Origin: Vermamoeba vermiformis
Taxonomy: Eukaryota
Assembly: GCA_045837725.1 (NCBI GenBank)
Contig: JBEWZL010000124.1
Location: forward strand, 496,001 to 560,000
Length of the DNA stretch: 64,000 bases
Reading direction: 5' to 3'
This document shows positions 3,648-63,131 of the stretch, piece by piece (the first letter of the stretch is position 1; the number at the start of each line of letters is the position of its first letter). The notes beneath the pieces were generated by a model, which did no database searches, had not been told where the DNA came from, and saw only the letters and a list, made by a program, of their open reading frames with translations. A program made the position numbers and the translations under genes.

Positions 3648-4941
3648 CTACAAATACATAATATTCAGCAACAATAGCCACACCATGGAGCCAACGACAG
3701 CTACTGTTAATGACGATGCACCACTGCCATAGACGTTCGGACTCAAGGTAACAAATGGTACTGAAATTACCGAGTCAGGATTGGTATTACTTGCAGGGGT
3801 CAATGGCTTGGGCGAACTAACTGGCGTTTGCTGCTCACTAGGAGTCGCGGGCTCTACTTGTGCAGGAGGCATCATGTCCACTCCAACAATTTGGTTGAAA
3901 CTGAAGGCTGTGTCTGCGCGCACGATGAACTTGCCAGTCACGTTGACATTACTATAACGGGCAATGGAGCCAATGCCTCGTGTGCCACTGAACATGAACT
4001 CTGCAGCACTGCCAGTCTCGCCCGTGGTAATGTCAAAGTGTTTCAATCCAGCGCGTGCGTAAGACCCTGAAGCCAGTACCCAACGAAGCTCTGCACACAG
4101 GTCAACATCCTTGTCCGTAGTATAGGATAGCATATAGCACTTACGCGCATAGTGGTACATGACATAGGTCTGTTGTGCGTTCCATACGATAACGATCTGG
4201 AATGTGTTGAGGGGATCCACACTGGGTGTTCTCGAGTACTTGGACACACGCCACCAAGTACAAGAAATGACAAACTCGCCTGTGAATGTCTTCTCGGACC
4301 CGTCTCCAAGCCCAGTGCGTGGATACAACGTTCGTACCTCTTCAGTGGCACGGTTGACAATGGTTGCATCGGCCGTTGCTCCGAACCAGATCTTGTTACT
4401 TTCATTCGGTATAGCCGTGGTTGTATCGACGTCTATACCATAGTTATTATATATCCTGACACCCGAAAGAAAATGCGCGCATGTATTACCTGCCCAGAAT
4501 GCAGCAATGAGAGGCAGCGGCGATGAATTGTTGAGCAACGAGTAACTCGTGCCAGTTGGAAAATAGCTGGTAAAACTGGCCAAACCATTCGAAGTGAAGA
4601 ATATAGTATTGTAGTTGACATCAAAGAATCTATATCTGTTAGTGTCTTGTTAGATTTGTTTGTGACTTACCTCAGGTTGACTCCAAAATAAAAGCTAACA
4701 CCAGCATCATCAGTGTCCATTAAATTGGTAAAATTGAAATCTCCGGTACCATATGGATAGAATTGTGTCGTAGGATACCCTATTGCATTGGTACAACTAT
4801 CAAAATGTCAGTTTATGTGACTCGAGGGGATGTGGTGGCGTACTTACATCGCTTGATTGTATGAGCAAACTTGAGTCGCGTTGCATATGTAGTCCGCGTT
4901 ACATGGTTGTTGTGCTCGAACAAAACTTGAGATAGAAGCAT
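3648..4941 (-). CDS. NIDO-domain cell-surface protein with Pro/Ser/Thr stalk and hydrophobic (GPI-like) C-terminus; 5' end uncertain
   Basis: Spliced FYPYG..DD..RFFDVNYNTIFFTSNGLASF, LIAAFW, NTFQIVI, TYVMYHY and SNVNVTGKF match the NIDO pattern; tail LTVAVVGSMVWLLLLNIMYL. Confidence 0.75.
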
Positions 4942-28443: not shown

Positions 28444-31400
28444 TCACCACTTAATTACTCTCTTTACATGGGACAATTCCTCGTCATACTCTTCTTGAGT
28501 TATAACTTGTTGTTCGAAAGTACTTCTTGACCCCAAAATTGATCCACCAATCCAAGCTGCGCGTCTTTCCGCCTGAATAATTTCGATCTTGGTCTTCGGT
28601 GCAAGTGCTTCCAGCTCTTTATGCAGGCGCTGAACCATACCTTTGAATCTAGTATTACCACCTACCAAGACGATGTTGCTGTAAAGTTCGCTTCGGATGG
28701 TCGGGTCACACTTTTGAATTGCTTTGTGGATCATCTGATGCATGCCAGGTATACTCGTTTTTCCGTTCAGGTGACGAAGCAAAGATGGTTTAAATAATGT
28801 CTCGGTGCATTGAAATCGAGCTGAGCTGATATAGATGATTGAACCATCTGGCATTTGGTGCGTCTCTTGTCTTATCGCTTGTCAGCTCTGTTTCATCAAT
28901 TGCCACTCGACCAAGCTTCTCTTTGATGTCATTTGCAGTATTAGGGTCGGCGTTAGGAATCAATACTGACAAATAGAATGCCACATCAATGCCACCAAGT
29001 TCGTAGACTCCAACAGCGTGAGAAATGCCATAGCCTTCGTAGATTGGTACTACTCGTGTGTAACTGTAGCCAGATTCCAAACAAGACCTGTACGACGACC
29101 AGTAGTGATCAGGGACAAGGCTGCTGTTGAAGTGAGGTGCAAAGCTGGGACATTGAAACCTCGTAACATGAGCCCAAGTAGTGTCTCTTTGTCTGCTTGT
29201 GATGTATCATGCGCGACAGCAAGCAAGACTGGGTACTTAGAAAGCCATTCGTTCACGTCAACTTCAATGCAAAGATCTTTCTGGAAGATGTCCCTCAACA
29301 TCATCTCAAAATCGTTTTGATTCGTCACCTTGCCATCTACCATGGAACGTCTCAATAACTTGTATCTCGAGCTTTGAACTTCGCTGCCAATGTACAATTT
29401 CCGTAGATCATCTGCGGGTGTAGCAAATCCACGTTTAATCTCTCCAACAAGGGCAGGGAATTGAACAACCGGGTATGAATCTCCTACTGCTCCTACATTG
29501 ATTGTAGACGAGTTGAGTGTGATGACAATTGCTCTCACTGAGTCGGGATCGCGGTCATTGAACGCGACAGGATAAATCAACCCCTTCTTCGGGTTTTCAG
29601 GCTCCGGCTCTGGTTCTGGCTCAAGTTCTGGCTCGGGCTTGGGGTCTTGATTTATCTTGGTGCTTAATGGCTGCACCGCTTTCACTTCGGGCTTTGGAGA
29701 CGCTACTTTAATCTCGGGCTTTGAAGGCTCAGCTTTAAGTTCGGGCTTTGGAGGTGCGACTTTGATTTCAGACTTTGGAGGCTCTGCTTTGGTCTCGGGC
29801 TTTGGAGGTTCTACTTTTACTACAGACTTTGGAGACTCTGCTTTAATTTCAGGTTTTGAAGGCTCTACTCTGACTTCTAACTTCGGAGGCTCTGATTTGA
29901 TCTCGGGTTTCGAATATTCCGCTTTAAGTTCGGGCTTCGGAGGTGCGACTTTGATATCAGACTTCGTAGGCTCTGCTTTTGGTTCGGGCTTCGGACTCTC
30001 TGCTTTAATCTCGGGCTTTGCAGGCTCCGCTTTGAGCTGAGGTGAAGATTTGGAAGGCGTCAATTTGTGAATTTCATTTTTCAACTGCTCGTTCTCTTGT
30101 TTAAGTCTTTGGCCGTCTTTCTGAGCGGTATCGAGACCACTCTTTACTGTTAAAATGTCTTGTTCGTACTGCTTGTTAGTTTGACGCAACTTGTTCAATT
30201 CGTTGTTCAGTTTGAGAATCTCGGCTTGACCTTCTTTCTTGAGCCTCTCAATCTCTAGTTTCTTTTGTTCGTCCTCTCGTGTCTTTTGTTCAACGAGCTT
30301 TCTGAGATCCAATTCGACTTTTTTGCTGGTCTCTAACTGTTCTTTGACTTTGGCATCGTTTGTTTGCATCTGCTCGATAGTGCGTTTGAGCGTAGTGATC
30401 TCTTCGTCCTTTCGCTGAACTAGCTCTTGCTGCGCTTGTTCGTTCCTATTGCTCGCAACTAATGACTCCTTCAGCTTTGTCTCGCGGACCGACATCTGAC
30501 TGATCTCCTCTCTCAGCGTTGCAATCTCAGTGTCTCGTTGTTTGCATAGCTGCTCGCTCTCATGAATCGTGTTCTGTAGCTCTAGTTCGACGTGCGTGAA
30601 CGATTCTAATCTTTGTTTCATCTTCGTCTCGTTGTCTCGTAGCTGTCGTATGGCCTCCTTAAGCCTGGTAATCTGGCCATCTTTCTGCTCTGCCAATGAC
30701 TGTGACTCTCGCTCTTCTTTCTTTTTCAACTCTAGTTGCGTAGCCAACTGATCACAGCGAAGTTTAAGCGCCGCTGCTTCTTTCTGGACCGCTGCCAAGT
30801 CGTCGCCCTGCTTCACGTAGTCAGCACACAACGAGTCGTAATCCTTCGTTTGCTTGAGCCAATCGATCTTTTGTTGGGCGTTAGTGTAGTCGATCTTCAA
30901 ATTGTCTAGCTGCTCGTGCAACTGTTCGATGTAGGCGACGTGCCTTTTGACCTCTTCAGTCCGATCTTGGTTCAATCGCTCGAGTTGTTTTATCGTAGCT
31001 CGGTAGCTGTCGCACTCGGCGCGCAGTTGTTCCATAGGCCTTAGTTGTTCCGCTTGAGAGTACGAGACACTGTCATTGAGCGCGATCGTGGACTGAGCAA
31101 TTTGAGAAGTACTTCTGGGCTTGGCGACTGCGCTAGAAGCTGCACCCGCAGTGTTGTTGGTTCTACTCGCTAATGCATGCAATCTATTCACCTTATTGCG
31201 CAAGTTCTTAACTCTCTCTTGTAACGCCAAGCTTAATTTCTTCATTTCGTCAGCTCCAAGTAAGTCATCAGATCCCACCACCGAGGAATCAAACTTTGAC
31301 CCAAAGTTATTAACTTCAAAGCCTTCGTCAATCATCATGCTTTCGCCTTGGGGTGACTCGCTCTAAAATTTGAAGTGTCAAAATTGCGAATCCGAAATAT

Positions 31401-32720: not shown

Positions 32721-34937
32721 TTAAGCAGTCATCTGAGCGCCGCTGTTGTCGTTCAAGTTGGCCAGTTGCAACGCAGCGTTCTTGCCCTTGATGCCTTCGG
32801 GGTCATTCGGTTTCACGGCGAGCAGTCTGTCGTACAATTCAACGCCCCCGTTGTAATCGCCGAGACTGACTGACAGTTCAGCGGCAAAGCGCAGTGCCTC
32901 AGGCTCTTCAGGGAGCATCTCCAAGACACGCTTGAAGCACTTGAGTGACTCGGCCTTGCGACCAGTGTTATATAATACAAAAGCCTTGTTGAACCAAATC
33001 GTGTAGTCGTCTGATTGGAGCTCCAAGGCCTTATCGAACAACTTGATGGCCTCTTCAGTCTTGCCCAAATGGTTGAATGCTGAAGCTTTCGTGGCCCAGG
33101 CGTACTCGTAGTTCGGATTCATTGAAATGGCGTGATCAGCTGCTTCAATGGCCTCAGCGTACTGCGACATCTTGATCAACATGTCAGCCTTGTCAGTCCA
33201 CAACAAGTATGACTTGTCGCGTTCTCCTTGCAAGATCAACGCGTGCTCAATTGATTGCAAAGCTTCGGCGTATCGTTGCTAAAAAGATACCGTTAGAGAA
33301 TGTTACGCTTGCGTTATTAGTCTAAAGCTTACCATCTTCTTGAGAACTTTAGCTTGCAATTGCCAAGCAGCAATGCTCTTCTCGTTCAATTTCAACAACG
33401 AGGTCAAGGTCTCCACTGCTTGCTCATTTTGACGACTAATAAATTGTTAGCCTGGCGCTAATGATCATAGGCCATCGATACGTACTCCATAAATAAGCAT
33501 GCAGCCTTGTTCAACAACAGTTCTTCGTTCTTTGAAGCACTGGGTGACAACTCAAGTTCTTTGTTGTAGCACTCCAGGGCCTGTTTCCAGTGACCCAACG
33601 AGTAATGAGCCTTCGCCTTGCAAGCCCAAACCTCAGCACTGTTGGGATGAATAGCAATTGCGGCATCAAGAGCATTGATTGCCTCAGCGTAGCGACCAGC
33701 GTCATCTGTGAGACGCGTTATTTCCAGTCATTTTTTGACACTTTGACACGTGTCATAACGAACTTACTATGAACCATGGCAACAATATGCTGTGCCTTCC
33801 AGTCCTTGGGGTTGAGTTCCAACGAGCGGTTGAATGCCTTAAGTCCTGCTTCACCGTCATCGAGCATCAACAAACAGTAACCCAAGCCAAAGTGCGCTTG
33901 GGCACAGTCAGGATCTAATTCAGAGGCCTTGGCGTAACATTCCTTAGCCTCGCTATAGTTCTTCTTGTCCATGTACAGCGTGGCCATTGTGTTCCACGCG
34001 TCAAAGTTCTTTGGATTCAACTCGGTGGCACGTTTCAGTTCGAGCAACGCGCCTTCAATTTTTTTCTTTACATATGTCAGTACGTGGTATAAATGTAGTC
34101 AACGCCTTCTCTTAATTACCTGGTAAATGAACACGATGCCCTTATTTGTGTGAGCACGATCGTAGTACGGATCGAGTCTCAAAGCAGTCACCAAACAATC
34201 CAAAGCTTCGTCGTACTTCTTCATACGAATATACGCAGAGGCTAAAAACAATGTCAACTATCTGAATATTATTAAATAATTATTGTAATTCGTACCTTTG
34301 TTATTGTACGCGATCGGGGTTCTGGAGTCGGTTGCTATCGCCTTGTCAAAGCATTCAATAGCTTCTTCAAATCTCTTTTGCTCCAATAATTCGTTACCAA
34401 TAGATATCCAAGCCTCTATAAATAAAGAATGAGAATTAATTCAGTTAAAGCAATAAAGATCAGATGAGCTCAACGGTTGGATAAGATCTTACCGAAAGCA
34501 AGAGGACGAGGAGGGTCTTTTTTAAATGACTTGCTAGTCTCCTTTGCATTGGGGTCAGGGCTCGCGAAGAATGTCCGCTCTGAAATTGTGTAAGACTAAT
34601 TTTCAGCGTGGAATTGGGATCAGCAGTTAAATAGGAATTTAATATCAATGATTGGTAGAAGGGATAATTCCAAAAATGGTAGTGTGTATTGGCAAATTGA
34701 ATTTTTTTAATTTAGACAATTATAGTAAGCGGATCTTGATTTTATGATAAAACGATAAATCGTAAACTTACTCTGAACGGTTCCAAAAACCTTCTTTGAT
34801 CCACGAGACGACAATAAATTATTTGTTCTAGTCAATGGATTCTTTTGGACATTGTTTTGACCTCGCGAAACTATGCGTGTGCTGAGTCCATCTACAGCTT
34901 CGGGAACACGTTTTAAATTCTGATAGATGGCACGCAT
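32721..34937 (-). CDS. Multi-TPR protein with possible mitochondrial presequence, multi-exon
   Basis: Many TPRs (AWISIGNELLEQKRFEEAIECFDKAI, AWATKASAFNHLGKTEEAIKLFDKAL); the basic Ser/Arg-rich first exon splices to ..VQKRTFFAS.. (5' exon less certain). Confidence 0.82.
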
Positions 34938-40446: not shown

Positions 40447-43400
40447 ATGCATTTCAAGTTATTGATCAATAATCAAGAAGCGAAACGCATCCCGTTCCCC
40501 AAAGGAACGCAATGCATTTTCGGAAGGTACCTACTAATATTCACGATAATAATACACGTGCTAAATTAAATGAATAGGAATATTCGATGCGATGTACGAA
40601 TCCACTTGCCATTCGTATCCAGAGAACACTGCAAAGTGACGATTGAAAAGAGCGGAAAGGTTCGTTACAGGATGAATTATAGATTATTTTACGCCATACT
40701 AAGCTTATTTAAAGGTTATGCTCTTTAATTTGAGCCAAACCAACTTCACTCTCGTAAACGGTCAAATTGTGCCTCCAGAGGGCTGGCGTTTGAAAGATTG
40801 GGACGTCATCTCCATTTGCGGCGCACACTTCTTGTTCTCCTTCGATTTTCCATACAGCCCAAAGGTACGCTGACCAGATTTCTATCGGCGAAATTCCGAT
40901 CTAACAATTATTGCCTTTCAGAAACAATCACCCACAACTACTGTGGCCAGAAATGTATCGCCCAGCGCAGCCAGCCGTAAAATCGACTTCGAGTCCGATC
41001 CAGCTGCAAAGGTTGCTGATGTTGAGAAACGAGCAGCAGATTCGGTCATTAAACCAGTCCTCGAAGTGCCCTCTTCTGCTCGTAAGGGAGGCTTACAACG
41101 ACAAAGCACTCTTCTTTTCGATGAAAAGAGTATCGAACCCGTCTTTAAGATGCCTCTTGCCCCGGCTTCAAGACCAAATCCATCAGTCGAGATCAGCCAA
41201 CCAGTACAAGACGTCGCCGTGAACACTAAGAGCGAGATCATTGCTCCAAGCACTGTCGAGGCCATCGTCCAAGCAGTGGAGGCCAAGCCCGAAGAAAATA
41301 TTGTCGAGACTTCAGAGCAACTTGCACGCGAAGAAGTCCCAGTCGTTGAAGAAACTGCTAAAGAAATCATCACAGGAGAGGCTATTGAAGAGCCTAAAGC
41401 CGCAGAAGAGCACATCAACACCGTTGTTGAAGAGAAAGAAATCGTTGCCGAAGCAGCTCAAGAAGAGGAGACTGCCAAGCCTATTGAAGAAGTCATTCAA
41501 GAAGAGAAGATTGAAGCCGCTCCCGTCGTTGAGAGCCGCGAAGAAACTGTCGCAGAGTCAGTGCCCGAGAGCATTCAATTGGACATTGTCAGAGAAGAAG
41601 AACAAGTCAGCGAGGCCGTTGAGTCTGCCCCCGTCGATGAGCTTGCTACTGAATCCGCCGAAGAAGTTGCTGCTAAGCCTTTGGCCGAGGAGGTTGCTAT
41701 CGCAGCTGACGAGACTAAGACTGAAGAAGTCATCGAGCAACTTACCCCTGTTGACGAGCCTGTCGTCGAACAAGTTCAAGAAATCACATCCGTCGAAACT
41801 AAAGAAGAGACCGTTATTGAACAAGGCTCAGAGGATATTCCTATTGTTGAAGAACAAGTTGCCAGCGAGCCTGTTGAAGAAGTCGTTGCCGAGTCCAAGA
41901 GCAGCGAAGAGGTTGTTGAACCTGCTGTCGAGACCGTAGAAACCGCGGTCGAAGAAGCTATTGAGACCATTCAAGAGCAAGTTGTTGAAGAGCCAGTTCA
42001 ACATGAAGTTGTCCAAGAGGTTGCTCAAGAACAAGTCGAAGAGGTCAAGGACGAAGTCGTTGAAACTGCCGTCGAGACCGTTGTCGAAGAGATCAAGCTT
42101 GAAGAGGTTGTCCAAGAGACCTCTCAATCTGTCGAGGAGGTCAAGGCCGAAGAGCCTGTTGCTCAAGAGGTTGAACAGCCCGAAGAGATCATTGAAGCTG
42201 CTCAAGTTGAAGCCTCTGAAGTCAAGACTGAAGAGCCTGAAGAGACAGAGCGAGTCGAAGAACAAATCGAAGAGGTCAAGCCCGTTGAAGAGACCGAACA
42301 AGTTATCGAATCAGTCGTCGAGCAAGTCGATACTGAAAAAGACTTTCCTGAACTTGTCAACGATATTGTTGAGACTGTCATCGAAGAAGTCGAGGAGCAA
42401 GTCTCCGCAGTTGAAGAGCCCGAGCAAGTTGTTGCCGAGTCCTCTGAAGTTATCGTCGAAGAACCTGTTCAAGAAGACAACGTCGAGCTTATTGAGGCCG
42501 CTGAAGAGACTTCTGTTATCGAACAAGAGACAACGGAGGTTGTCAATGAAGAGGCTGTCATTGAGACATCGTTCGTTGAAGAGAAGGTTGAAGAAGTTCC
42601 CGAGACTGAAGAGATCTCCCCTGTCGAGGAAGAGAAGGAAGTCATCGAACAAGTTCCTGTTGCCGAAGAGACCGAGACCAAGGAGACTGAAGTGGTTGAA
42701 GCTGCTCAAGAGACTTCTGACGTTTCTCTCGTGGAAGAGATTACTCGCGATGAGCCTGTCGCCGTTGAAGAACTCAAGCTCGCTGATGAAACTATTGTCG
42801 AAGAATCAAGCGAGAAGGTCGAGGCCATTGAGCAACAACCTGAGGTCGCTGACAAGATCGTCTCTGAGACTCAAGTCGAGGTCGAAGATGTCAAGACTGA
42901 AGAAGTGGCTCAAGACCAAGTCGTTGAAGAGTCTGCAGCCGAAGAGTCCTTCATTCATGAGGAAGTTATTGTTGAGGCTTCAATTGACGCTGAAGAAGCC
43001 ATCGTCGAGGACAACAAGATCGAAGAACAAGCTGAAGAGGCTGTCATTGAGTCTGTCGTTGAAGAGAGCGATGAGAAGGTCGAGGACGTTATCGAGTCCA
43101 TTGAGACTGTCATTGAGACTGTTGAACCCGAAGTCACCGAACAAGTCAACGAGAGCGTGATTGACGCTGTCGAGACCGAACAGGTCAACGAGTCTGTTGC
43201 CGAGCCTGAAGAGAAGGCCATTGAACAAATTGAAGAGGCCTTCATCGCTGAAGAAACTGTCGCTGATGAAGTCACTGACAAAGTCGACTATCTTGTCGAG
43301 ACCATCGAGGACGCTGTTGTTGAGCAAGAAACAACTGTCAACGAAGAGGTTGTTGAGCAAGAAGCGACTGAGACTGTCATCGAAGAGGCTGTCATTGAGA

Positions 43401-45077
43401 CTTCATTCGTTGAAGAAAAGACAGAAGAAACACTCGTCGAAGAAGTTGCTCCTGTTGAAGAGACCAAGGAGTTCGAAGTTGTTGAACCCGCTCAAGAGGT
43501 CGCTGAAGTTGGCGAGCCTGTCGCGGAGATTGTCGTCGAAGAGCCTCTTGAACAAGACCACGAAGAGGACGAAGCAATTGTTGAAGAGGACGTTCAAGTC
43601 GTCGAAGAGATTGCTGAGGAGAAGACTGAAGAGCCTGCTGAACAGCAATACGAAGTCACTGAGACTGACAATGTTGTTGAAGAGACATCTGTTGTTGAGG
43701 CCACCGAAGAAGTCGCTGAAACTAGCCAAGAAAAGGTCGTTGACGAAGAGGTCGTCGAGACTTCAGTGCACAACGAGAGCGTTGTTGAAGAGACCGAAGA
43801 AGTGACTCCTGTCGATGAATTGGCTCAGGATGAAGTCGTTGAAGAGATTAGTCTCGAAGAAGAGTTGGCTCTCGATGAGTTCGACATTTCATATGGCTAC
43901 GACCACATCGCTGATGACGATGAAGATGAAGAGGTCGATGACGCTGTTGTTGAAGAGCAGCAAGAAGCTGAAGAAGTCGTTGAGTCCACCATCGCAACTG
44001 AAGAAGTTCAAGAGACCGCTGTCGAGGCTGCCGAAGAGATCGCTGAAGAGCCTGAGACCGTTGAATCAACTGAACCCGTTGAAACTGTGGCTGAAGTCGG
44101 GGCTGCAGTTGAGCCTGTCGACGAGATCATTGAAGAGTCTGTCGTCGAAGAGGCTAAGGAAGACGTTGTTGCTCAAGAAGACGTCCTTGTGCAATCTGAA
44201 GAGCCCGTCGCTGAAGTCGCTGAAGAGTTAGTCGCTCCCGAACAAAGCGAAGTTGACTCTGAAGAAGTACATGCCAGCCAAGTTGCTGAAGAACAAACTG
44301 AAGTCGTGCAAGAGGCCATTGAAGAAATTGCACCCATTGATGAGCCTGAAGAAAAGGTTCAAGAAGTCGAGTCCGTTGAAGTTCCCGAAGAAAAGACTGA
44401 AGAACAAGTCCACGAGTCTATTGTTGACGCTGAAGTTGAACAACAATCCGAACAGCAAATTGAACCCGAGCACGTTGAAGAGAAGATCGAGACTGCTCCT
44501 GTTGAAGAAAAGACCGAACAAGTCGTCGCTCAAGAAGACGTCCGTTGTTGTTCAATCCGAAGAGACCATTGTTGAGGCTGCCTCTGAGCCCTCTGAACCT
44601 GTCGTTGTTGCCCCTGCCCACGAGACACCTGTCAAAGAAAAGCCCGAGTCACGCTCAGCCTCACCGTCCTCTGACTCCCGTTCAGCAGATGAGAGCTCCG
44701 AGCACGAACAAGACACTGACGAGACTAACACTGGTGCTCGTGACGAAGAGCCTGTTGAACAGCCGACTCGTGGCCGAGGCCGCAGAAAGGCAGCTGAGCC
44801 CTTGACACGTGTCAAAGTGTCAACGCGTGCCAAGCGTCAAGCTCAAAGCGAGAGCTTCGATAAAGAAGAGAATAAGGGCGATAGTATTGATGTGGATGAC
44901 AAAGAGAACGCGAGTGCGAATGTCATGGCTGGTCCGAGCGGATCTGCAATTTTCAACTTGGAAGAGCTCAAGTCATATCCTCGTAAAAGATTGCAACAAC
45001 TCTGTAAAAAACATAATATCAAGGCCAATTTGAAGACTGAAGAGCTGATCCAAGAGCTCTCGAAATTGACTTACTAA
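40447..45077 (+). CDS. Ki-67-type FHA domain + ~1200-aa Glu/Val-rich disordered region + C-terminal SAP-like motif; three 5' introns; frameshift near 44543
   Basis: Spliced N-terminus CIFGRNIRCDVRIHLPFVSREHCKV..LFNLSQTNFTLVNG..RLKDWDVISI joins ORF 40943 in frame; C-terminus LKSYPRKRLQQLCKKHNIKANLKTEELIQEL. Confidence 0.85.
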
Positions 45078-46464: not shown

Positions 46465-49066
46465 ATGGAAGAGCCTCAGACATATTCATGGTTCGCGAAT
46501 CTGCCAAACGAGGTATTAAAAATTAAAACAATTGTCAGCAACTTTACTTCATTTGAAAATCATGATACTGTTACTCAACAGTTAGTTCAATTTATAACTA
46601 TTTTACGAAGCTTCTTGCCTTCAATTTATCTGACTTGTTTCTCAATCTGTAATTTATTAATTTTTCTCTCCAGATTTTAATGGAAATCTTCGATTATCTC
46701 GGCAGATTACAAATAAACAGGTTAGTGCGCGTTAATAAACGCATTAATAGACTCGCACAATACGTTCTGGAGCATCGGAAGAAGATCCGACTTGTTGGCG
46801 ACAATTTGCGTGTCTTGGTATTGGCTCTTCCTTCTAAATATGGTAATAATAGGTACTACTGTGCTATGGATATACTAACTGGTGCTATGTACTCAGATAT
46901 AAGGCAGATTGAATGTAGCAGAAAGCCCATGCCTGCCGGCTACACAGATGTGGACATTTCTCGTACGAGAAAATGAACTTTGCCATCGCTGTACTAATAC
47001 TAAATATAACTTAATAGGAGCGGGCTTAGTGATCAATACTTTCTCCATGGAGGCACCCGTTACAAAAATCCATTCATTTCGTCTTCGGGAACAGCGAGAA
47101 CGGATGCAGTGTTTGCCGGTTAAAAATGGCGGGAAAGAGCGAAAGATTACGTTCATTGAATCTTCGAGCACTGAGCAACGATTCAGAGTCAAATTATACA
47201 CTATTTCCGTTATGGTAGGATTTATTTCGCATTTTATTATGCCTTTAAGGACATAATATTAGTATTGTTAGCATACTTATATAATATATTATTTTAAGGC
47301 GGATATGATATTGTTCATCGTGGATCCGGAAGAAATTGAGGAGTACTCGGAAGACATTCAAGAAATGATCTTTGGCTGTTGTTTTATGATGAGTGCTCGT
47401 AATATCCTCGTAGCTGTTGATTTGTCTAACTGTTCGGCAGTCAATTCGCCTAATTTGGCAAGCGGTAAGAGGAAATTTCGCGTCAAAATTCAAACCTTCA
47501 TTTTTTTGACTCATTTTTATTATTTTTAGTTTTCAATCAATCTAAGCAAAAAATATCCAAGTTACTCGACAAGGTTGTTGGCCAGTGCTACAAAATAATT
47601 CCGATAAATGTCCGAACCGGATGCAACATCGCCGTCTCGCCCGAACTTCCCAACTACGAATGGTTCCGCAACGGTTCACTGAAACAGCTCATCCTCGAAG
47701 ACCAATTGCGGACAAATTTTGACGAAATTTCGTATAGCAGACTTTGCAAGGCTCCGTTAAAACTGCAAATCAATAATATTCTACGAATTTACGGCATTGG
47801 AGTAATATTTGAAGCTCGTGTAACAAGTATGTTGGAGCTCTCTCTATATATAACTACAAGTATCATGTTGATCGATTAATGGATAATTCAGGTGGCACTT
47901 TGAAGCCAGGTACTACCGTTGAGATCCATCCACGAGGTCTCTCAGCTAAAGTGGAAAGTATCCAACATTGTCACGAGGATGTTACCGAAGCTAAGGCGGG
48001 CAAGTACTGCATTAAGGCGTATTACTAATACTATACTTCTACAAAAATTATAATTATTATCAAATACTTTATTCATGAAAGGCAGATCTGATTTGATTGT
48101 CTAATTCATTTTTTTCATGATCATTTTTGTTTTTATAATGTGTTATTGTTTCGCTAATTAGATTCATATAGGAGATGTTATTGCGTTTGCAGTGCACGGT
48201 ATACATATACGAAATGTGTTTCCAAGGTACTGCTATGTCGTAGAGCGTTTTGCGGCACCAAAATTCAGGTACTGCATTGCTTTTCGCGCCAAATTTGCCC
48301 TTACGAAGCCCGATCGATTTGCACAACATCACGAGTACACCATGTTCTACGGCTCATCTCGCATTCAATGCATCGTTTGGTGGATATTTCCCGGAGCCGA
48401 CGGAATATCTCACGATAAATCTGCGCGGCAGTTTAAAGTCAAAAAAGAACTCCCCAAAAAACCAGAGAAAAATGACCAGTCAACGAAGACACTGCATCAA
48501 GAATGGAGAGATTATACTAGCCAAGTCCATAGAGTTGCCGCAGAACATAAGAAATGTATGATGGAACAAGGCAAAGACTTTGAAAGACCGCCCAAACCAA
48601 AAATGAAAAAAGTGGAAGCAATAGTTTTTCCGCTGATGGCTTGCGAAATTCAGCCGTACAGGACAAATCAATTCGAAAAGAACTATTCTGGCAAACTAAT
48701 GATTGTCGAGAAAAAAGCAACCGAGAAAATCCCTGGTATAAGAAAAAAGAAAGTTTTAATTGTTGGCGTCGGACGCGTGGATTTCGTGATCAGGAAATCC
48801 GCCGAGACTATTGATTTTCCATCGACTATAGGTACGTTATACTTAGACCGGCACCTACTATCATCCCATACAATATTAATACTGTCATATAATTAGACTT
48901 TAAGAAACGGTCCCAAGAAGTGATAGACCAAGCTGAGCGACTTTTCAAACTGCCACGCGAACAGAACTCTTACGCAACGTTCTTAAATCACGTTAAAAAT
49001 GATAGTGGTGCCAAGAATTGCATTCAGCAGCGCGAGGGATGTTCAGAATGGAAGGCGCGTCATTGA
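46465..49066 (+). CDS. F-box fused to degenerate eEF1A/HBS1-like domains I-III (pseudo-GTPase), multi-exon; 3' end uncertain
   Basis: FANLPNE/ILMEIFDYL..LVRVNKRINRLA (F-box); ADMILFIVD, NILVAVD, IIPINVRTGCNI; PLKLQINNILRIYGIGVIFEARV..GTLKPG..AKVESIQHCHEDVTEAKAGDVIAFAV (domain II); FRAKF..VGVGRV (domain III). Confidence 0.8.
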
Positions 49067-49296
49067 ACAATTAAAAATTGTATTTCGAGCGGTTTTGCTT
49101 CTTCCTCGTCTTTTGTTCAATCGCTCATACGCGAACATAACTTTCTACCTGCCAAAAATTGATTATCGTTTTGCAAATGCAGGGACGGGATAATAAAAGA
49201 CGTTTACATCAAATACAATTTTATTTACTAATTTTACGCTGATTTGTCTATTAAGATACTTCTATCATATGATTCTATTATGACACGCAATGTATC

Positions 49297-49375
49297 GAGA
49301 ACAACAGTAGCTCAGCAATGCAGATCTGTCCTTGAATATTCGGACTTGAGATCTGCTGCGTCATTCATCGTTCTC
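49297..49375 (-). ncRNA. Eukaryotic type II SECIS element in the 3' UTR of the deiodinase-like gene
   Basis: Minus strand: GAGAACGAU/GUUGUUCUC helix I; AUGAC...UGAG core; GCAGCAGAUCU/AGAUCUGC(AU)UGC helix II; unpaired AA; GUCC/GGAC apical minihelix. Confidence 0.88.
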
Positions 49376-49571
49376 AAGCGACTGTACTAACCATACTAAT
49401 GTATAGTACGATTAATACGACAACATTCCTATTCAAATAGACTATGCCCAATTTAAGTCTCATAAGAATAAAAAATGTCGTCATGTCGCTAAACACACCA
49501 CGTGCCACTTCGAATCTTTGCAGAAATTTCTCGACCAATCAGCGTCATTCGTAACAAGCCGTCACGTGCTC

Positions 49572-50940
49572 TTAAGCGTGAGTAACGCCGTTCTTTTTGA
49601 ACTCGTCGAGCCACGCCACGACCTCGCTAAAGTGCATTGACTCGTCGCTCGGCATTGACTTGTACATGACTTTGCCGTTCAAAATAATGTAATAGCGCTC
49701 AGGCCAGGCTGCAAATACGCGCTCAAAGGTGTTCTCCATCAAATCCACGTACATTGGCAATTGATACTGCATGTCTTTTTGGAACAACTTGGCGAGTTCA
49801 GTGCGCTCTTCGAGGGTGCGGTGCTGACGCCAGCTGAACTTGTCACCGAGCGGCCATTCATCGTTAGCATGTGCCTGGCGAGTATAAGACTATGATATAT
49901 ATAACACATGGTCTATTAGCTTACCTCTCGGATATAAACTGTCATAAAGGTCGCGATGTCCTTGTGCTTTTCGCATCCGCTGTGGTGATTGGGCACACCA
50001 TAGCGCATGGGAGGTCAGCTATATGAGCCACCAATAAGCACTAATGGTCTATCTTTGGTCATAAAATCATATAATTTAACACGACCGCTGAAAAAGTTGA
50101 GAAAAGTTAGCAAGATGTGGCTGACGTTGAGAAATAATTACCCGTCGAATGTAGCAAGATCCATATCGGGTACTTGATCACCTTCCCAGAGGTCACCAGG
50201 TCTTGTAATGTCATATTTCATATAGATCGCGATTTCTTTCATTTTTCTAGTTCAGTGAATCAGATCGCATCTCCAAAAAATCTTTAGAATAGCGCTACTT
50301 ACTTAATTAACTCTACATCATCGCGATAAATAGCTCTAAGACCATGAAGAGCTTCAAGACCCTATTTAAAATGTATAAGTAAGCAAAACATCGTCGTTTT
50401 ACGGATTTGGGATCTGGTCTTTTTTACATAATAATAAATAATTATTAAATACATACGACTTCCAGATCTTGAACACCAAATTCTTTCAGTACACGACGTT
50501 GCTGATCGAGAATAACTTCTGTGTGATATGTAGCGTCGTATTTCAATCCGAGCTTCTTTTGGAATTCTGGGTCATGCCATAATTCAGCTTCACGCTTAAG
50601 CAACTAAAATAATATTCACATTAATATATTGAATTAAATTGAGGCTATTATTTAATTATTTTATTAAATCAGAATAAAGGCGGATCTCATAAGTAAATCG
50701 GTTGAAAAGTTAGATAATTTTCTTAGAGCTCGAAATATAATTAATACATACATCCAAGACAATGCTCTTAGGCAAAGCACGGCGATAGATGTTCCAACCG
50801 TCATCTTGAGGAAGAAGGTCCGATGCGCTACCGCAGCCACGAGAAGAAGAGTTGCAACAAGTGTCCTGTTGTTTGTTAGACACAGAGTTGCACTCACCCG
50901 CAGCGCAGCATTCGGCGCCTTGTGTGGTGTTGCACGACAT
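49572..50940 (-). CDS. Iodothyronine deiodinase-like selenoprotein (Sec TGA at 50015-50017), 6 exons
   Basis: RPLVLIGGSYS-U-PPM, VYIREAHANDEW, QHRTLEER and VDLMENTFERVFAAWPERYYII match the deiodinase family; the frame stays open through the TGA; SECIS lies ~200 nt after the stop. Confidence 0.92.
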
Positions 50941-59052: not shown

Positions 59053-62000
59053 TTAAGCTGAGTCATGCAACACACGGATCTTCTCCGACGCGGTGTCATC
59101 CAAGATGAAGACTTCACCAGTAGTTCCGTTCACTCTAACTCTCATGCCGTCTCTCAATATCTCCATGACGCCCTTGCATGCAACGACAGCAGGAATGTTC
59201 AGCTCGCGTGCTGTGATCGCTGCGTGTGTCAAGGCACCACCTTCTTGGGCAATAACTCCGCTGCTTTGTGAGAGCATCATGCAAAAAGCAGATGAAGTGG
59301 AATAGGTGACCAAGATATCTATAGGAATAGAATTTTAATCGATGTTATTTTTTTGACGTCGGATCCGTTTTAAACTCACCTCCTGGCTTGAACTTGTGTC
59401 GGTCAGTTTCGATGCTACGGATGACAGTAACTTTTCCTTCAACAATGCCCTTCGAGCCAGGAGCACCCACTAGCTTCTTATCGTTGATAATGCTCTCGAT
59501 GTTCTGGCTCTGCTCGTTGAACATCAGCTCCGCGATGATTGAAACAGCTTTGACGATTCGATGGGTGTGCTTAGGGAACCTAATAGACGTCAGAACACGT
59601 ATAAATTAGTGGGATAATATAACTTACCAATCAAGAGGAGGAATTTTAGGGCCAGATGGGGCAGGACCGAGATGTTGAGGCACATCCTGAAGATTGACCG
59701 TCTTGCGGTACAAAAGTCGTTCAGCAAAGAGCTTAGACAAGGCTTCGGTCTCTTCATTAGGGGCGTAAGTCTTATAAAGAAGTTCTAGCTCGGGCAAGTC
59801 AGCTTCAGTCGCCAATTCCTTATTTGGTAAAATGTTTCGATTGACCAAACGTTGACCGACCTCCAACATTGCATGGCGCAAGAGACCGATGCCCATCATA
59901 TCACCGTACATGGATCTTTCATCGCGCAGAGGATGCATGTATTGGGCTTCAGCGAGCAATTCATCGAAAAGAGCTCGATCTGAAATTGAATTTGTAAGCA
60001 TAAAATTCTTTTATAATTAAGTGGTTGCCACTTACCCTTTTCAGGAACGCGATTGCGGACTTCGTTGATTTCGCTTTGCGAAGGAGCAGTGGCAGGCAAC
60101 AGACCGGCGCCGTACAAATAAGTCTTTTTCAGGCCGTGTAACAAGAGCGCGGGCTGCTCGATCAAAGTTTGTTGTACGACATCATAGCCATTGGTCAATC
60201 TGTAGCCAGCTTGAATTTCATCTGAAGCATTACCATATTTAGCTACTGTCAAGGTACGCCAAAAAAAGTTTTAAATCCGCTTACATTTTTTGACGACTGG
60301 ACCGACTCCTGCACGAGATTTCAAGCTTTCGATGACTGCCGCGGGATTTTCGGACTGTTCGAGCAACAACAAGGCCTCGGGATCTTTCTGGAACGCCTCG
60401 AATATTTCTTCAGCAATGAATTCTTCGACACTGCAAAACAAGGTTAGATCTGCTATTCATGAACGCGGTTTCTATCAACGAACATACCCTGAGCCAATAG
60501 GCGCCGTGCCATGAATGATTGAAATGCCTGATTTGATATCCAAGCCCCAGTCGTACTTAATATGAGCCAAAAAGTCTTGGAGCGGCAACATGGCAGTGAA
60601 CGTGTAAATGTGATGCTTTTGAACCATGTAGCCAGCCTGCAATACTACCATTAGTAATCACATACAATATGTATTATAAAAGTGATCTTACGTTTTCATA
60701 GCAGTCCATGAGGTGAGCCCAAACTTCGTCATCCGAAAGTTTTGCACGCTCGACAGCAGCTGGATCCAAAAATCAGTATTGAGTTGAATAACAAGTATCT
60801 ATTAATCAATGCATACCGAGCTTGATGTTTCTGTTGTAACAGTTGCGCTTGTCTTCTTTGAGCCAGTAGTCCATGTCTTGGCGGCAGATCTTGTCTTTGA
60901 ACACATTTTCAGCGTTCTTGAATCGCTCTCTGATGGCAGGATGGAATCGTTGAATTAACTTGAAAAGGAGCTTGGGAGGAGGACCTTAATGGATGTTAAT
61001 ACGAGTTACTTATTGTTTATAGTTCGTAGAAATTACCTCGTGCATCAGCAGGAGCGCCGACGAATCGCATGCACATGTAAGTGAAGCCATTGACTTCTTT
61101 GTGCTCAACGTAATCTAGCATTGAACACGTGACTCGAGAGCTGCGTTGCATAGCGACCTTTTGATTGTTGGGATACACGTTGAAAAACATCTTCGACATG
61201 GCTTGAGGCATGTGCACGCCTTCCAAGGCCCATGCACCAGGACCAGGTGCCTTCCATTCTTTCAAGAACGAGAACTTTTGTTGCCAATTGTTCGTGGTGA
61301 TTGGTCGTGCTTGCAGTAAGAACAACTTGCCTTGTTTGTCGAATGCAAATTCAATATCTGGAGTAATAACCTTGATTAGTATACTTATACTTGTTGGTTC
61401 ATTTGGCGTACCTTGAGGGCACTCAAATGTGTTTTCGACTTTCAGCGCGAGTTGAGCGACGAGTTTGACGCGTTCATCGTTTAGTGAAACAGCGCTCTCG
61501 AGGTCTTTTGGCAAATGCTTAACATTCAATCCGCCGTTCTCAGTCTTATCAGCTGATCGAAATATCGTTAGAAAGGTGCCAGCCACGTTCAGATATTGTT
61601 TTCACTTACCACATGCAACAGATTGCTTGGCCAAGTTGATTTTTGTGCGACGGATCTCGAGTTTATCGTTCTTCGCGATGATAAATTGATCAGGCGAGAC
61701 TTCACCAGCTACGACCATCTCGCCTTGACCGAAGTAGCTTTCAATCATCATTTCGTCTGTAGGACCCATTGGATTGACCGTGAAAGCCACGCCGCTGACG
61801 TGCGAGTCAACCATTTCTTGAATGACAACTGCCATTTTAGGGAATGCAGCAGGAGAGCCATCAGCTTGTTTCTCCATTGATTTTTGATAAGTGATCACGT
61901 GAGGGGTCCACAACGAGGCCCAGACTTTCTTGATGGCTTCGGAGACTTCCGCTGATGACTTGATGTTCAAGTATGTGTCGAATTGACCAGCAAAGGCCTT

Positions 62001-62665
62001 GCCGTTTGAATCTTCTTGATTGCTGCTAGAGCGGACGGCTACACCAAGAGTGCCTTGTCGTTGTGCAAGAAACTCGTCAATGGCGCTAAGCAATGCCTCA
62101 GAAACTGGATGCGCAAGAATCCGAGCTTTGATATCTTCGCATTGCTGCGAGAAGTCTATTTGAGTGAAAAAGTTAGAAAGCTATTTATAATTGGTATAAA
62201 TTTCTTCTTTACATCAGAAAAATTTTTACGGTTCTGAGTTTGAAAAAAGCTAAATTTGTAAAGAAATTTGAAAGTACCTGTAGATCCGTTCTCGGCAGCG
62301 GCATTGTTCAACTCTTCGATCAACTCGTCTGCGCCACTGTTGCGGATATGCTCTTCGTATACCCGGGTTGTAACAACGAAGCCAGTCGGAACATCGAATC
62401 CGAGAGCTATCAGATTCGACAAGTTCAAGCCTTTGTTGCCCAACAGGCTCGCATCGACTTCAGCAGCCTCTTTGAGTGTAGGAAAGTTAGTAGCAACTGC
62501 ATCGATGCGTCGCTGAGGAAGTTTTGGGGTTCGAGCATTGTTGGTACTTCCTCGTCCAAACTTTGATAAGAAGAAGGCACTAACGCCGAGTCCAGCGACA
62601 GTAAGTACCTTCTTAATATCAGAGAGTGCGGGAGTGAGTTGAGGTAAGGTTGTATTAGCTTGCAT
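59053..62665 (-). CDS. Rifampin-phosphotransferase/PigC-architecture enzyme (PPDK-type ATP-grasp, helical substrate domain, C-terminal phospho-His swivel), multi-exon
   Basis: LGNKGLNL..VPTGFVVTT, VAVRSSSNQED..FAGQFDTYLN, MAVVIQEMV, SGVAFT, PQDIEFA..LFLLQARPIT; C-terminal GGALTHAAITARELNIPAVV..VRVNGTTGEV; no PEP-binding barrel. Confidence 0.9.
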
Positions 62666-63131
62666 TGGTGACGGTAAGTTGCGATCGGAATGATTGAAAA
62701 AAGATGTCGCAGTGAACGTGTATTTAAGGTCGCTTCGGGCATGTGATACGTTCACTGATTTCCTAGATTGACCGGGGTTTGACTTGATTTCAAAAAAATT
62801 GGGTAGATCCCCAAAAAATCCCCAAAAATCTTGGTTTGACCCCAAGCGAATTCTATGAAGCCCCAAAATGAAAAAGATAATTTTAGATATTATAAATTAT
62901 ATTATTAAGTTCCTAAGCTCGCTAATTTCTGTTTACCAGTTTTTGCCGTAGCGTGCTGCAATCTGCTCAGGTTCTTTTGTAGCTTCTCAATCAAAGAGTG
63001 AGAACGCAGACCCGCTCAATGTCTATAGATAACATCTTTTGACTATTCTGAATTAAACATTGGAGTTGTGTTCAACGTTGGGCATTGTAAATTGTGAATA
63101 ACAATTTGGTATCGTGAACAACAGCTTAATT

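Follow-up and report, generated by a model that had tools for sequence, protein, structure and literature searches.

A gene at 46465-49066 on the + strand of the 64,000-nucleotide Vermamoeba vermiformis DNA analyzed here (the window) joins, in one product, an N-terminal F-box to all three domains of a diverged eEF1A-like protein that lacks the GTP-binding motifs. Judged from its sequence, the protein is a presumptive substrate receptor of SCF (Skp1-cullin-F-box) ligases, and we consider it likely that the eEF1A-derived part is the recognition module. F-box proteins set which substrates the SCF ligases ubiquitylate, and eEF1A, a hub with many partners, is more abundant than any other translation factor. 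The conserved weld of the two suggests a direct, unstudied link between cullin ligases and translation in free-living amoebae, and would represent a clean natural case in which a translational GTPase has become a fixed module for binding. The order of the parts, F-box first and then the three eEF1A-like domains in a single product, had been proposed in a sequence-only reading of this DNA and is borne out here by collinearity with two relatives, P0001 and P0002, and by the match in fold.

Gene Structure and Homologues

Exon 2, within one open frame at 46653-46976, encodes the helices of the F-box as well as the initial G-domain strand (RVLVLALPSKYGNN), and the fusion is therefore independent of splicing. 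The complete gene model, which was built from GT/GC..AG sites and reading frames, has nine exons on the + strand, at 46465-46512, 46674-46852, 46904-46962, 47018-47214, 47299-47464, 47530-47826, 47892-47999, 48172-48831, and 48897-49066 for exons 1 to 9, starting with the ATG at 46465 and ending with the TGA stop at 49064-49066, the same ends as in the sequence-only reading. The open stop-to-stop pieces on this strand form a chain that gives a single open reading frame when joined at the splice sites. The spliced product has 627 amino acids, or 644 when an in-frame intron of 51 nt is kept.

The introns are short, in DNA of ca. 37-41% G+C. Seven of them are of the GT..AG type and one is GC..AG, namely intron 7 (48000-48171), whose donor GCAAGT at 48000 is the sole non-GT donor among the eight; it was chosen because no GT donor there preserves the frame. 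The optional 51-nt intron (46853-46903, +) reads GTACTA...TACTAAC...AAG, with a TACTAAC box and an AG acceptor. It may be retained, since it is in frame and contains no stops; splicing it out improves the fit to P0001, closing a gap of 17 amino acids.

P0001 (623 aa, E = 2.6e-42) was the one relative among 274 candidates when the largest window exon was used as the query among longer proteins. It is a metagenome protein, the 1872-nt open reading frame of which nearly fills an intron-free contig of 2046 nt. With P0001 as the query, an exhaustive search reached 991 proteins at an E threshold of 1e-3; at thresholds of 1e-10 and 1e-30 there were 127 and 14. The second in this search, P0002 (618 aa, E = 3e-181), is a complete open reading frame on a Vermamoeba vermiformis Trinity transcript, has the same F-box/EF1A fusion, and aligns with the window protein over 641 columns at 42.9% identity. 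As P0001 and P0002 are complete on a single contig and a single transcript, respectively, their F-box and EF1A-like parts lie on one transcript.

The alignment of the spliced window protein with P0001 covers 627 columns at 50.1% identity (599 bits), with seven of the eight junctions free of gaps and the eighth falling in a variable loop. A tblastn search of the window with P0001 recovered the exon blocks in their order along the + strand, beginning at 46653; the short exon at 46904-46962 and exon 1 (16 codons, within a read-through segment) gave no match of their own, and no second copy of the gene was found across the window. Taken singly, the exon pieces are weak queries: four of seven had no Pfam match, and two that were searched against the PDB gave chance-level matches only, nothing related.

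Two contigs of the public run X1 bear on the splicing. One of 220 nt joins 48745-48828 to 48894-49029 (GT..AG, cut +3) with four differing letters, the 65-nt intron 8 (48832-48896, +) being removed, and one of 163 nt corresponds to the exon stretch 47301-47463; that X1 is an RNA run is a guess only. In three RNA-seq runs labeled with the same species, the aligned reads numbered 0, 4, and 3; all were partial and fell at 49321-49387, outside the gene. These runs do not include reads of this organism and so provide no test of expression. In the 8 kb around the gene, Rfam at E up to 0.1 returned one sub-threshold snoRNA match, and an ARAGORN scan found no tRNA.

The combination of an F-box with GTP_EFTU_D2/D3 that the sequence-only reading had suggested looking for in other protists was found in P0002 and in P0143 of Balamuthia mandrillaris. 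The named sources of the family are only Vermamoeba vermiformis (P0002 and P0013) and Balamuthia mandrillaris (P0143), the rest being metagenome or run assemblies. Vermamoeba vermiformis has at least two family transcripts, P0002 and the more divergent P0013 (400 aa, N-terminus missing). A metagenome scan with a four-sequence alignment gave four loci (L001-L004) of family members that are ca. 50-60% identical. Loci L001-L003 show EF-like coding sequence after the F-box exon and on its strand, and the match in L004 was to the F-box exon only; the exon breaks of L001 fall at the same protein positions as introns 5 and 7 of the window gene. The family thus comprises several lineages or paralogues at 40-60% identity (L001-L004, P0013, and P0182). 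No relative was found among the 185 pattern matches of a metagenome scan with the largest window exon, a word-indexed search with residues 1-330 of P0143 returned only P0143 itself among 1937 candidates, and the ESM Atlas gave only generic EF-Tu-family clusters, with scores of 0.78-0.79 that are under its evidence level.

The F-Box

The F-box spans residues 8-45 (SWFANLPNE / ILMEIF...RLAQ; 46486-46760, +), as defined by Pfam profiles and orthologues. The N-terminal part, SWFANLPNE, is followed by intron 1 (46513-46673, 161 nt, phase 0), which splits the motif between LPNE and IL, and then by ILMEIFDYLGRLQINRLVRVNKRINRLAQ. This exon structure recurs elsewhere in the family: in locus L002 an exon break occurs at this point, and the frame in L001 and L004 begins immediately upstream of IL (ILIEV), as though at an acceptor there, the upstream exon not having been located. 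In all genomic loci examined the F-box frame opens at this same exon boundary, without the LP start.

With the curated Pfam cut-offs of 20.5 bits for F-box and 24.3 bits for F-box-like, the motif passes both profiles in P0002 (24.1 and 25.6 bits) and in the Balamuthia protein P0143 (29.4 and 27.7 bits). Residues 16-75 of the window protein are 65% identical to the F-box piece P0020, and the AlphaFold model of P0001 has helices at 16-24, 28-34, and 39-51 in this part. W9, L13, P14, N15, E16, L18, D23, and L25 are among the invariant F-box residues. The F-box is present in every family member with an available N-terminus, and a profile of the family N-terminus detected it in no other protein of the hit set, which also contains divergent EF1A-like proteins from Physarum and Ceratiomyxa.

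The eEF1A-like Body

The body C-terminal to the F-box matches eEF1A better than any other translational GTPase compared. In a PDB search with P0001, yeast eEF1A was the best match (E = 7.9e-19, residues 136-416 against 86-369), followed by aEF1A (3e-14), SelB (4e-9), CysN (2e-6), HBS1L (1.2e-5), and eRF3 (3.2e-4), which answers the comparison with eEF1A, HBS1, and eRF3 that had been suggested in the sequence-only reading. With the family profile, canonical eEF1A (P0183) scored 6e-40 and HBS1-like proteins 1.5e-22 or weaker. The less decayed P0143 shows the same ranking (aEF1A 7e-64, eEF1A 1.7e-60, HBS1L 4.7e-50, and eRF3 4.8e-35). The window protein itself aligns with EF1A-like proteins at 65-75 bits and 18-21% identity, the corresponding E-values referring to a set of 151 proteins only. 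Because the eEF1A matches far outrank those to HBS1 and eRF3, the body is, by sequence comparison, a descendant of eEF1A and not of Hbs1, eRF3, or Ski7. A Ski7/Hbs1-like origin and a CysN-like origin were both rejected on the score ranking.

The AlphaFold2 model of P0001, computed from a 56-sequence alignment, has a mean predicted local distance difference test (pLDDT) score of 79.3 and a predicted template modeling (pTM) score of 0.78. From the N- to the C-terminus, it shows the F-box helices, a six-stranded α/β remnant of the G domain, two β barrels, the second of them interrupted by a helical hairpin (454-489), and a helical tail. A Foldseek search with this model gave eEF1A and aEF1A structures as the best matches, with E down to 1.4e-24; the target-normalized template modeling (TM) scores were 0.66-0.76 for EF1A/EF-Tu in the GTP form or on the ribosome, and 0.38-0.45 for the listed structures in the GDP form. 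Both the three-domain EF1A fold and a detectable homology are thus found through the structure and sequence matches of P0001, to which the window protein is 50% identical, and through the family profile.

The loss of the nucleotide-binding site is evident along the whole G domain. The former strand β1 and P-loop position (LRVLVLALPSKYGNN; 46806-46850, +), which share an exon with the F-box helices, contain no GxxxxGK[ST]. The place of the P-loop reads LVLALPSKYGNN, and the equivalent place in the P0001 model is a β strand; a second MAFFT run aligned this region differently, and neither run shows a P-loop. Switch I/G2 and G3 (ITFIESSSTEQRF) lie at 47092-47184 (+), where DxxGH is lost and the degenerate counterpart of the RGITI of G2 is QRERMQCLPV (47092-47121). 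At the G4 position (47407-47433, +) the protein has VDLSN, against VNKMD in canonical eEF1A, in alignments that include that of P0001 to 1f60. Neither the alignment nor a regular-expression search of the window protein found [AG]xxxxGK[ST], DxxGH, or an NKxD at the G4 place. The loss of the G motifs claimed in the sequence-only reading thus stands for the P-loop, DxxG, and the change of NKMD to DLSN; its assignment of RAGLVI as the counterpart of RGITI does not, since the alignment and the model secondary structure place RAGLVI in helix α1, after the former P-loop.

The same holds for the relatives. When the window protein and four full-length relatives were aligned to canonical eEF1A (P0183), IDAPGH at G3 was replaced by IESSS in the window protein and by IEPPI, LLAPN, IRPPN, and ITASN in the others, NKMD at G4 by DLSN (window), DLSN, DMRN, DLHC, and DMRN, and SGW at G5 by NVR, NVQ, NIK, NIK, and NIK. 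At the aligned places, none of G1 GxxxxGK[ST], G3 DxxG(H), and G4 NKxD is present in the window protein, P0001, P0157, P0161, P0002, or P0182. A match to [AG]xxxxGK[ST] at residue 125 of P0002 was obtained by regular expression only; it falls in the β2-β3 turn and not after β1, and is a chance match. On the basis of these alignments, the G1 to G5 motifs are replaced in the window family. The eEF1A-specific stretch bearing Ser53, which the sequence-only reading had found unrecognizable, indeed has no counterpart in the alignment of the window protein, and this region is short and of low confidence in the P0001 model (residues 75-88 and 106-116 have pLDDT below 50).

The G-domain remnant is connected to domain II by the family-specific linker motif LEDQLRTNFDE (47694-47726, +), most positions of which are invariant in the four full-length members. 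Domain II, an EF-Tu-type β barrel, extends across three exons (47751-48272, +) and partly retains the GIG and PGD motifs; Pfam GTP_EFTU_D2 gives 18.7 bits on a 35-aa exon piece, below the gathering cut-off, and 27-36 bits in the orthologues. Domain III, the C-terminal barrel of eEF1A (48273-48830, +), ends in IVGVGRVD, which aligns with TVAVGVIK of eEF1A.

Two further segments, both absent from the sequence-only reading, have been added to this framework. An insert of ca. 70 amino acids in domain III (48390-48605, +) is helical in the P0001 model (helices 454-471 and 474-489), and a family-specific C-terminal extension of ca. 55 amino acids (FKKRSQEV...LFKLP.EQ...; 48897-49063, +) is kept in P0001, P0002, P0161, and P0013. 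The extension corresponds to the helices at 561-622 of the P0001 model and matches no Pfam family.

Conservation and Family History

The four full-length members (window, P0001, P0161, and P0002) are 44-55% identical in pairs, or 42-59% when the 546-aa P0182 is included, and 185 of the 627 positions are invariant in the four. As many as 113 of these 185 occur in at most one of ten EF1A-like proteins, and 33 occur in at least six of the ten. The family-specific positions cluster in the F-box, in the former P-loop strand (RVLVL.LPS.Y), in IFG..MMS.RN, in the linker (Q.RTNFD), in DRF.QH..Y...YG..R...I.WW.F of domain III, and in the tail (LF.LP.EQ). The presence of 185 invariant positions at 42-59% identity, 113 of them family-specific, argues that the gene is under selection. 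This pattern of conservation is, as far as the alignments can tell, the signature of a new constrained function, neither that of a decaying copy nor that of an eEF1A mimic. The near-identical X1 sequence differs at four positions of the gene, two of them synonymous and two nonsynonymous by codon reading. All other relatives are so distant that their synonymous sites are saturated.

In a tree of the EF parts (38 rows), the window family forms a clade on a long stem (Shimodaira-Hasegawa-like approximate likelihood ratio test, 100), and P0143 is not its sister. The best tree constrained to place the window family and P0143 in one clade exceeded the unconstrained quick tree by 5.0 log-likelihood units, with p = 0.62 in the approximately unbiased test. 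The data are thus compatible with a single ancient fusion for the window family and Balamuthia, long branches being in play. The family probably began as an F-box joined to a working EF1A-like GTPase, the G motifs decaying further in the Vermamoeba-like lineage. Among the EF1A-like proteins, P0072, P0126, and P0143 have an altered P-loop start, GP and not GH; the family profile detected no F-box in P0072 and P0126, and the quick tree did not settle their relation to the fusion family.

Proposed Function and Alternatives

In the mechanism that we favor, the F-box would bind Skp1 and thereby position the EF1A-like body before the E2 enzyme, and the body would act as a fixed, nucleotide-independent binding platform. 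Its ligand would be new or modified, not a plain copy of the eEF1A partners, with components of the translation machinery as obvious candidates. A new binding function is preferred to mimicry because 113 of the 185 invariant positions are family-specific. The protein is tractable experimentally, being encoded by a single gene with a clear domain split and having the LP motif as a site for control mutants.

Several points weigh against this assignment. We infer the recruitment to SCF from the F-box motif only, and some F-box proteins act outside SCF complexes. The junction of exons 1 and 2 has no read coverage in this organism. Exon 2 by itself gives 16.6 bits with Pfam F-box (PF00646) and 16.9 bits with F-box-like (PF12937), below both cut-offs, because the LP motif (profile positions 1-7) sits in exon 1. 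Of the five scanned homologues with a complete N-terminus, three likewise stay under the cut-offs, namely P0001 (no F-box match at E up to 1; F-box-like 20.7 bits, E = 3.6e-4; F-box_4 21.1 bits), P0157 (no F-box match at E up to 0.1; F-box-like 20.7 bits, E = 3.6e-4; F-box_4 21.0 bits), and P0161 (F-box 17.7 bits, E = 3.5e-3; F-box-like 18.9 bits, E = 1.3e-3); P0152, which begins inside the F-box, matches neither F-box nor F-box-like. The F-box part of the P0001 model is of moderate confidence (block mean pLDDT 69-74). Finally, the closed GTP-like shape of that model is a hint only and may reflect habits of AlphaFold.

We have also considered that the body could still resemble eEF1A to its partners. 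As a nucleotide-independent, GTP-shaped mimic of eEF1A, it could bring SCF to the docking sites of eEF1A or trap molecules that attack eEF1A, which we regard as doubtful. If true, it would provide an amoeba-specific ubiquitylation route for translation surveillance or control, via the ribosomal factor site, the tRNA-shaped rescue and termination factors, or eEF1B.

The best surviving alternative, which is a special case of the favored receptor function, is a ligase directed at the ribosome or at translation factors, in which the pseudo-eEF1A docks at the sites of eEF1A (ribosome, Pelota/eRF1, aminoacyl-tRNA, or eEF1B). It would account for the retention of all three domains, for the partly kept GIG and PGD of domain II, for the 33 invariant positions that are common to at least six of ten EF1A-like proteins, and for the proximity of the model to GTP-form or ribosome-bound EF1A (TM 0.72-0.76 for 3wxm, 3vmf, 9bdp, 5lzs, and 5lzw). 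However, the conformation of the model is a predicted one, the face of the G domain that contacts the ribosome (P-loop and switch regions) has been replaced, and 113 of the 185 invariant residues are specific to the family, so that such docking appears unlikely.

Another possibility is that the F-box is not part of a ligase, and would instead either tether the pseudo-eEF1A to Skp1 in a non-SCF complex or act only as an instability tag that sets the level of the protein, with the EF1A-like body as the functional part, a scaffold or regulator. Roles of this kind are known for F-box proteins, and the modest F-box scores would agree with them; however, the F-box is among the best-conserved parts of the protein and occurs in every member with an available N-terminus, which makes this option quite improbable.

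The sequence-only reading had advanced a third possibility, in which the eEF1A fold serves as bait for eEF1A binders, and in particular as a decoy that catches eEF1A-attacking pathogen effectors for ubiquitylation. The named members all come from free-living amoebae, Vermamoeba and Balamuthia, and reviews describe some bacterial effectors as acting on eEF1A and amoebae as their natural hosts. The family also diverges fast, with 42-59% identity against more than 65% among eEF1A hits. Mimicry predicts that the residues shared with eEF1A should be the conserved ones, and the opposite is observed, since the conserved residues are mostly family-specific. In addition, the identity to EF1A-like proteins is only 18-21%, the stretch bearing Ser53 has no counterpart, and the nucleotide pocket and the switch regions are gone, so that the body is unlike the natural target. 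The bait proposal is therefore not upheld, and we give the decoy very little credence.

That the model joins two genes by mistake or describes a decaying eEF1A pseudogene is scarcely believable: no RNA reads from this organism fall on the gene and the single exon pieces have weak or no matches, but one exon holds the F-box together with the beginning of the G domain, the frame is open through nine exons, a Trinity transcript and short contigs without introns show this architecture too, 185 positions are invariant, and a spliced contig is seen, which confirms the locus as one real spliced gene.

Comparison with Known Systems

The window family has the three-domain fold in common with canonical eEF1A and aEF1A (PDB 1f60, 5lzs, and 3wxm), and partly keeps the motifs of domains II and III. 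Unlike eEF1A, the window protein carries an F-box, the domain III insert, and the C-terminal helical tail, and lacks the P-loop, DxxGH, NKxD, and the helices bearing Ser53, at an overall identity of 18-21%.

The closest parallel is the Balamuthia mandrillaris protein KAL6049269.1 (P0143), annotated as a hypothetical protein, in which an F-box is followed by GTP_EFTU, D2, and D3, as in the window family. Both have W-F-x-x-L-P and Q/I-N-x-L-x-x-V-N in the F-box and an insert at the same place of domain III. The identity between them is 23-25%, and the C-terminal tail is absent in P0143, whose EF1A part is less decayed (GTP_EFTU 86.8 bits), with GxxxxGKT kept, NVPGH for DxxGH, and NQME for NKxD. 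The Physarum (P0042) and Ceratiomyxa (P0118) proteins are likewise divergent EF1A-like proteins, but they keep GxxxxGK[ST] and have NKMD or HMDD at G4.

As here, an eEF1A-like body is combined in Hbs1, eRF3, and Ski7 with an N-terminal extension through which it is linked to other machines, and Ski7 is described as a non-hydrolyzing relative of eEF1A. In contrast, the matches of the window family to Hbs1 and eRF3 are far weaker, there is no HBS1_N, and the extension is an F-box. The arrangement also resembles that of the "F-box only" class, an N-terminal F-box followed by a protein-binding module, the module here being an EF1A-derived pseudo-GTPase.

A full-text literature search returned, in the portions of the texts that were accessible, no account of a fusion between an F-box and an eEF1A-like protein, in agreement with the statement of the sequence-only reading that none had been described; unnamed database entries with this architecture do exist. 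Their labels, "EF-1alpha" (JGI) and "hypothetical protein" (Balamuthia), hide the F-box/EF1A architecture at present. F-box proteins and degenerate eEF1A are each known separately, and, as far as the literature seen goes, their combination and the conserved additions are apparently new.

Neighboring Features

Other open frames of the window, at 3648-4649, 29050-31362, 182-1741, 32721-33278, and 61017-62896, all on the - strand, contain NIDO, actin, PIG-L, TPR, and PPDK_N-type dikinase pieces. The NIDO match has E = 4e-18, and the N-terminal part of actin (E = 6e-17) lies behind an unmatched region of ca. 600 amino acids. Several long frames have no Pfam match, for example that at 40874-44575 (1233 aa). 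The NIDO, actin, PIG-L, TPR, and deiodinase-like genes of the window do not contradict an amoebozoan origin.

Downstream of the F-box/pseudo-eEF1A gene, an iodothyronine-deiodinase-like gene has its last exon at 49572-49889 (-), which matches positions 141-235 of the 237 in the Pfam T4_deiodinase profile (E = 9e-17); the exon for the selenocysteine or cysteine codon would sit upstream of it. In the expected 3' untranslated region of this gene there is a hairpin at 49310-49385 (-) with a minimum free energy of -40.2 kcal/mol (z = -4.0, equaled by none of 200 shuffles). An internal loop of the hairpin carries AUGA on its 5' side and GA on its 3' side, and the apical loop is rich in A, so that it looks like a selenocysteine insertion sequence (SECIS) element; Rfam gave no SECIS match at E up to 0.1. 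The depth of run X1 over 49228-49600 is 14.4, and a few reads of runs X4 and X5 partially match 49321-49387.

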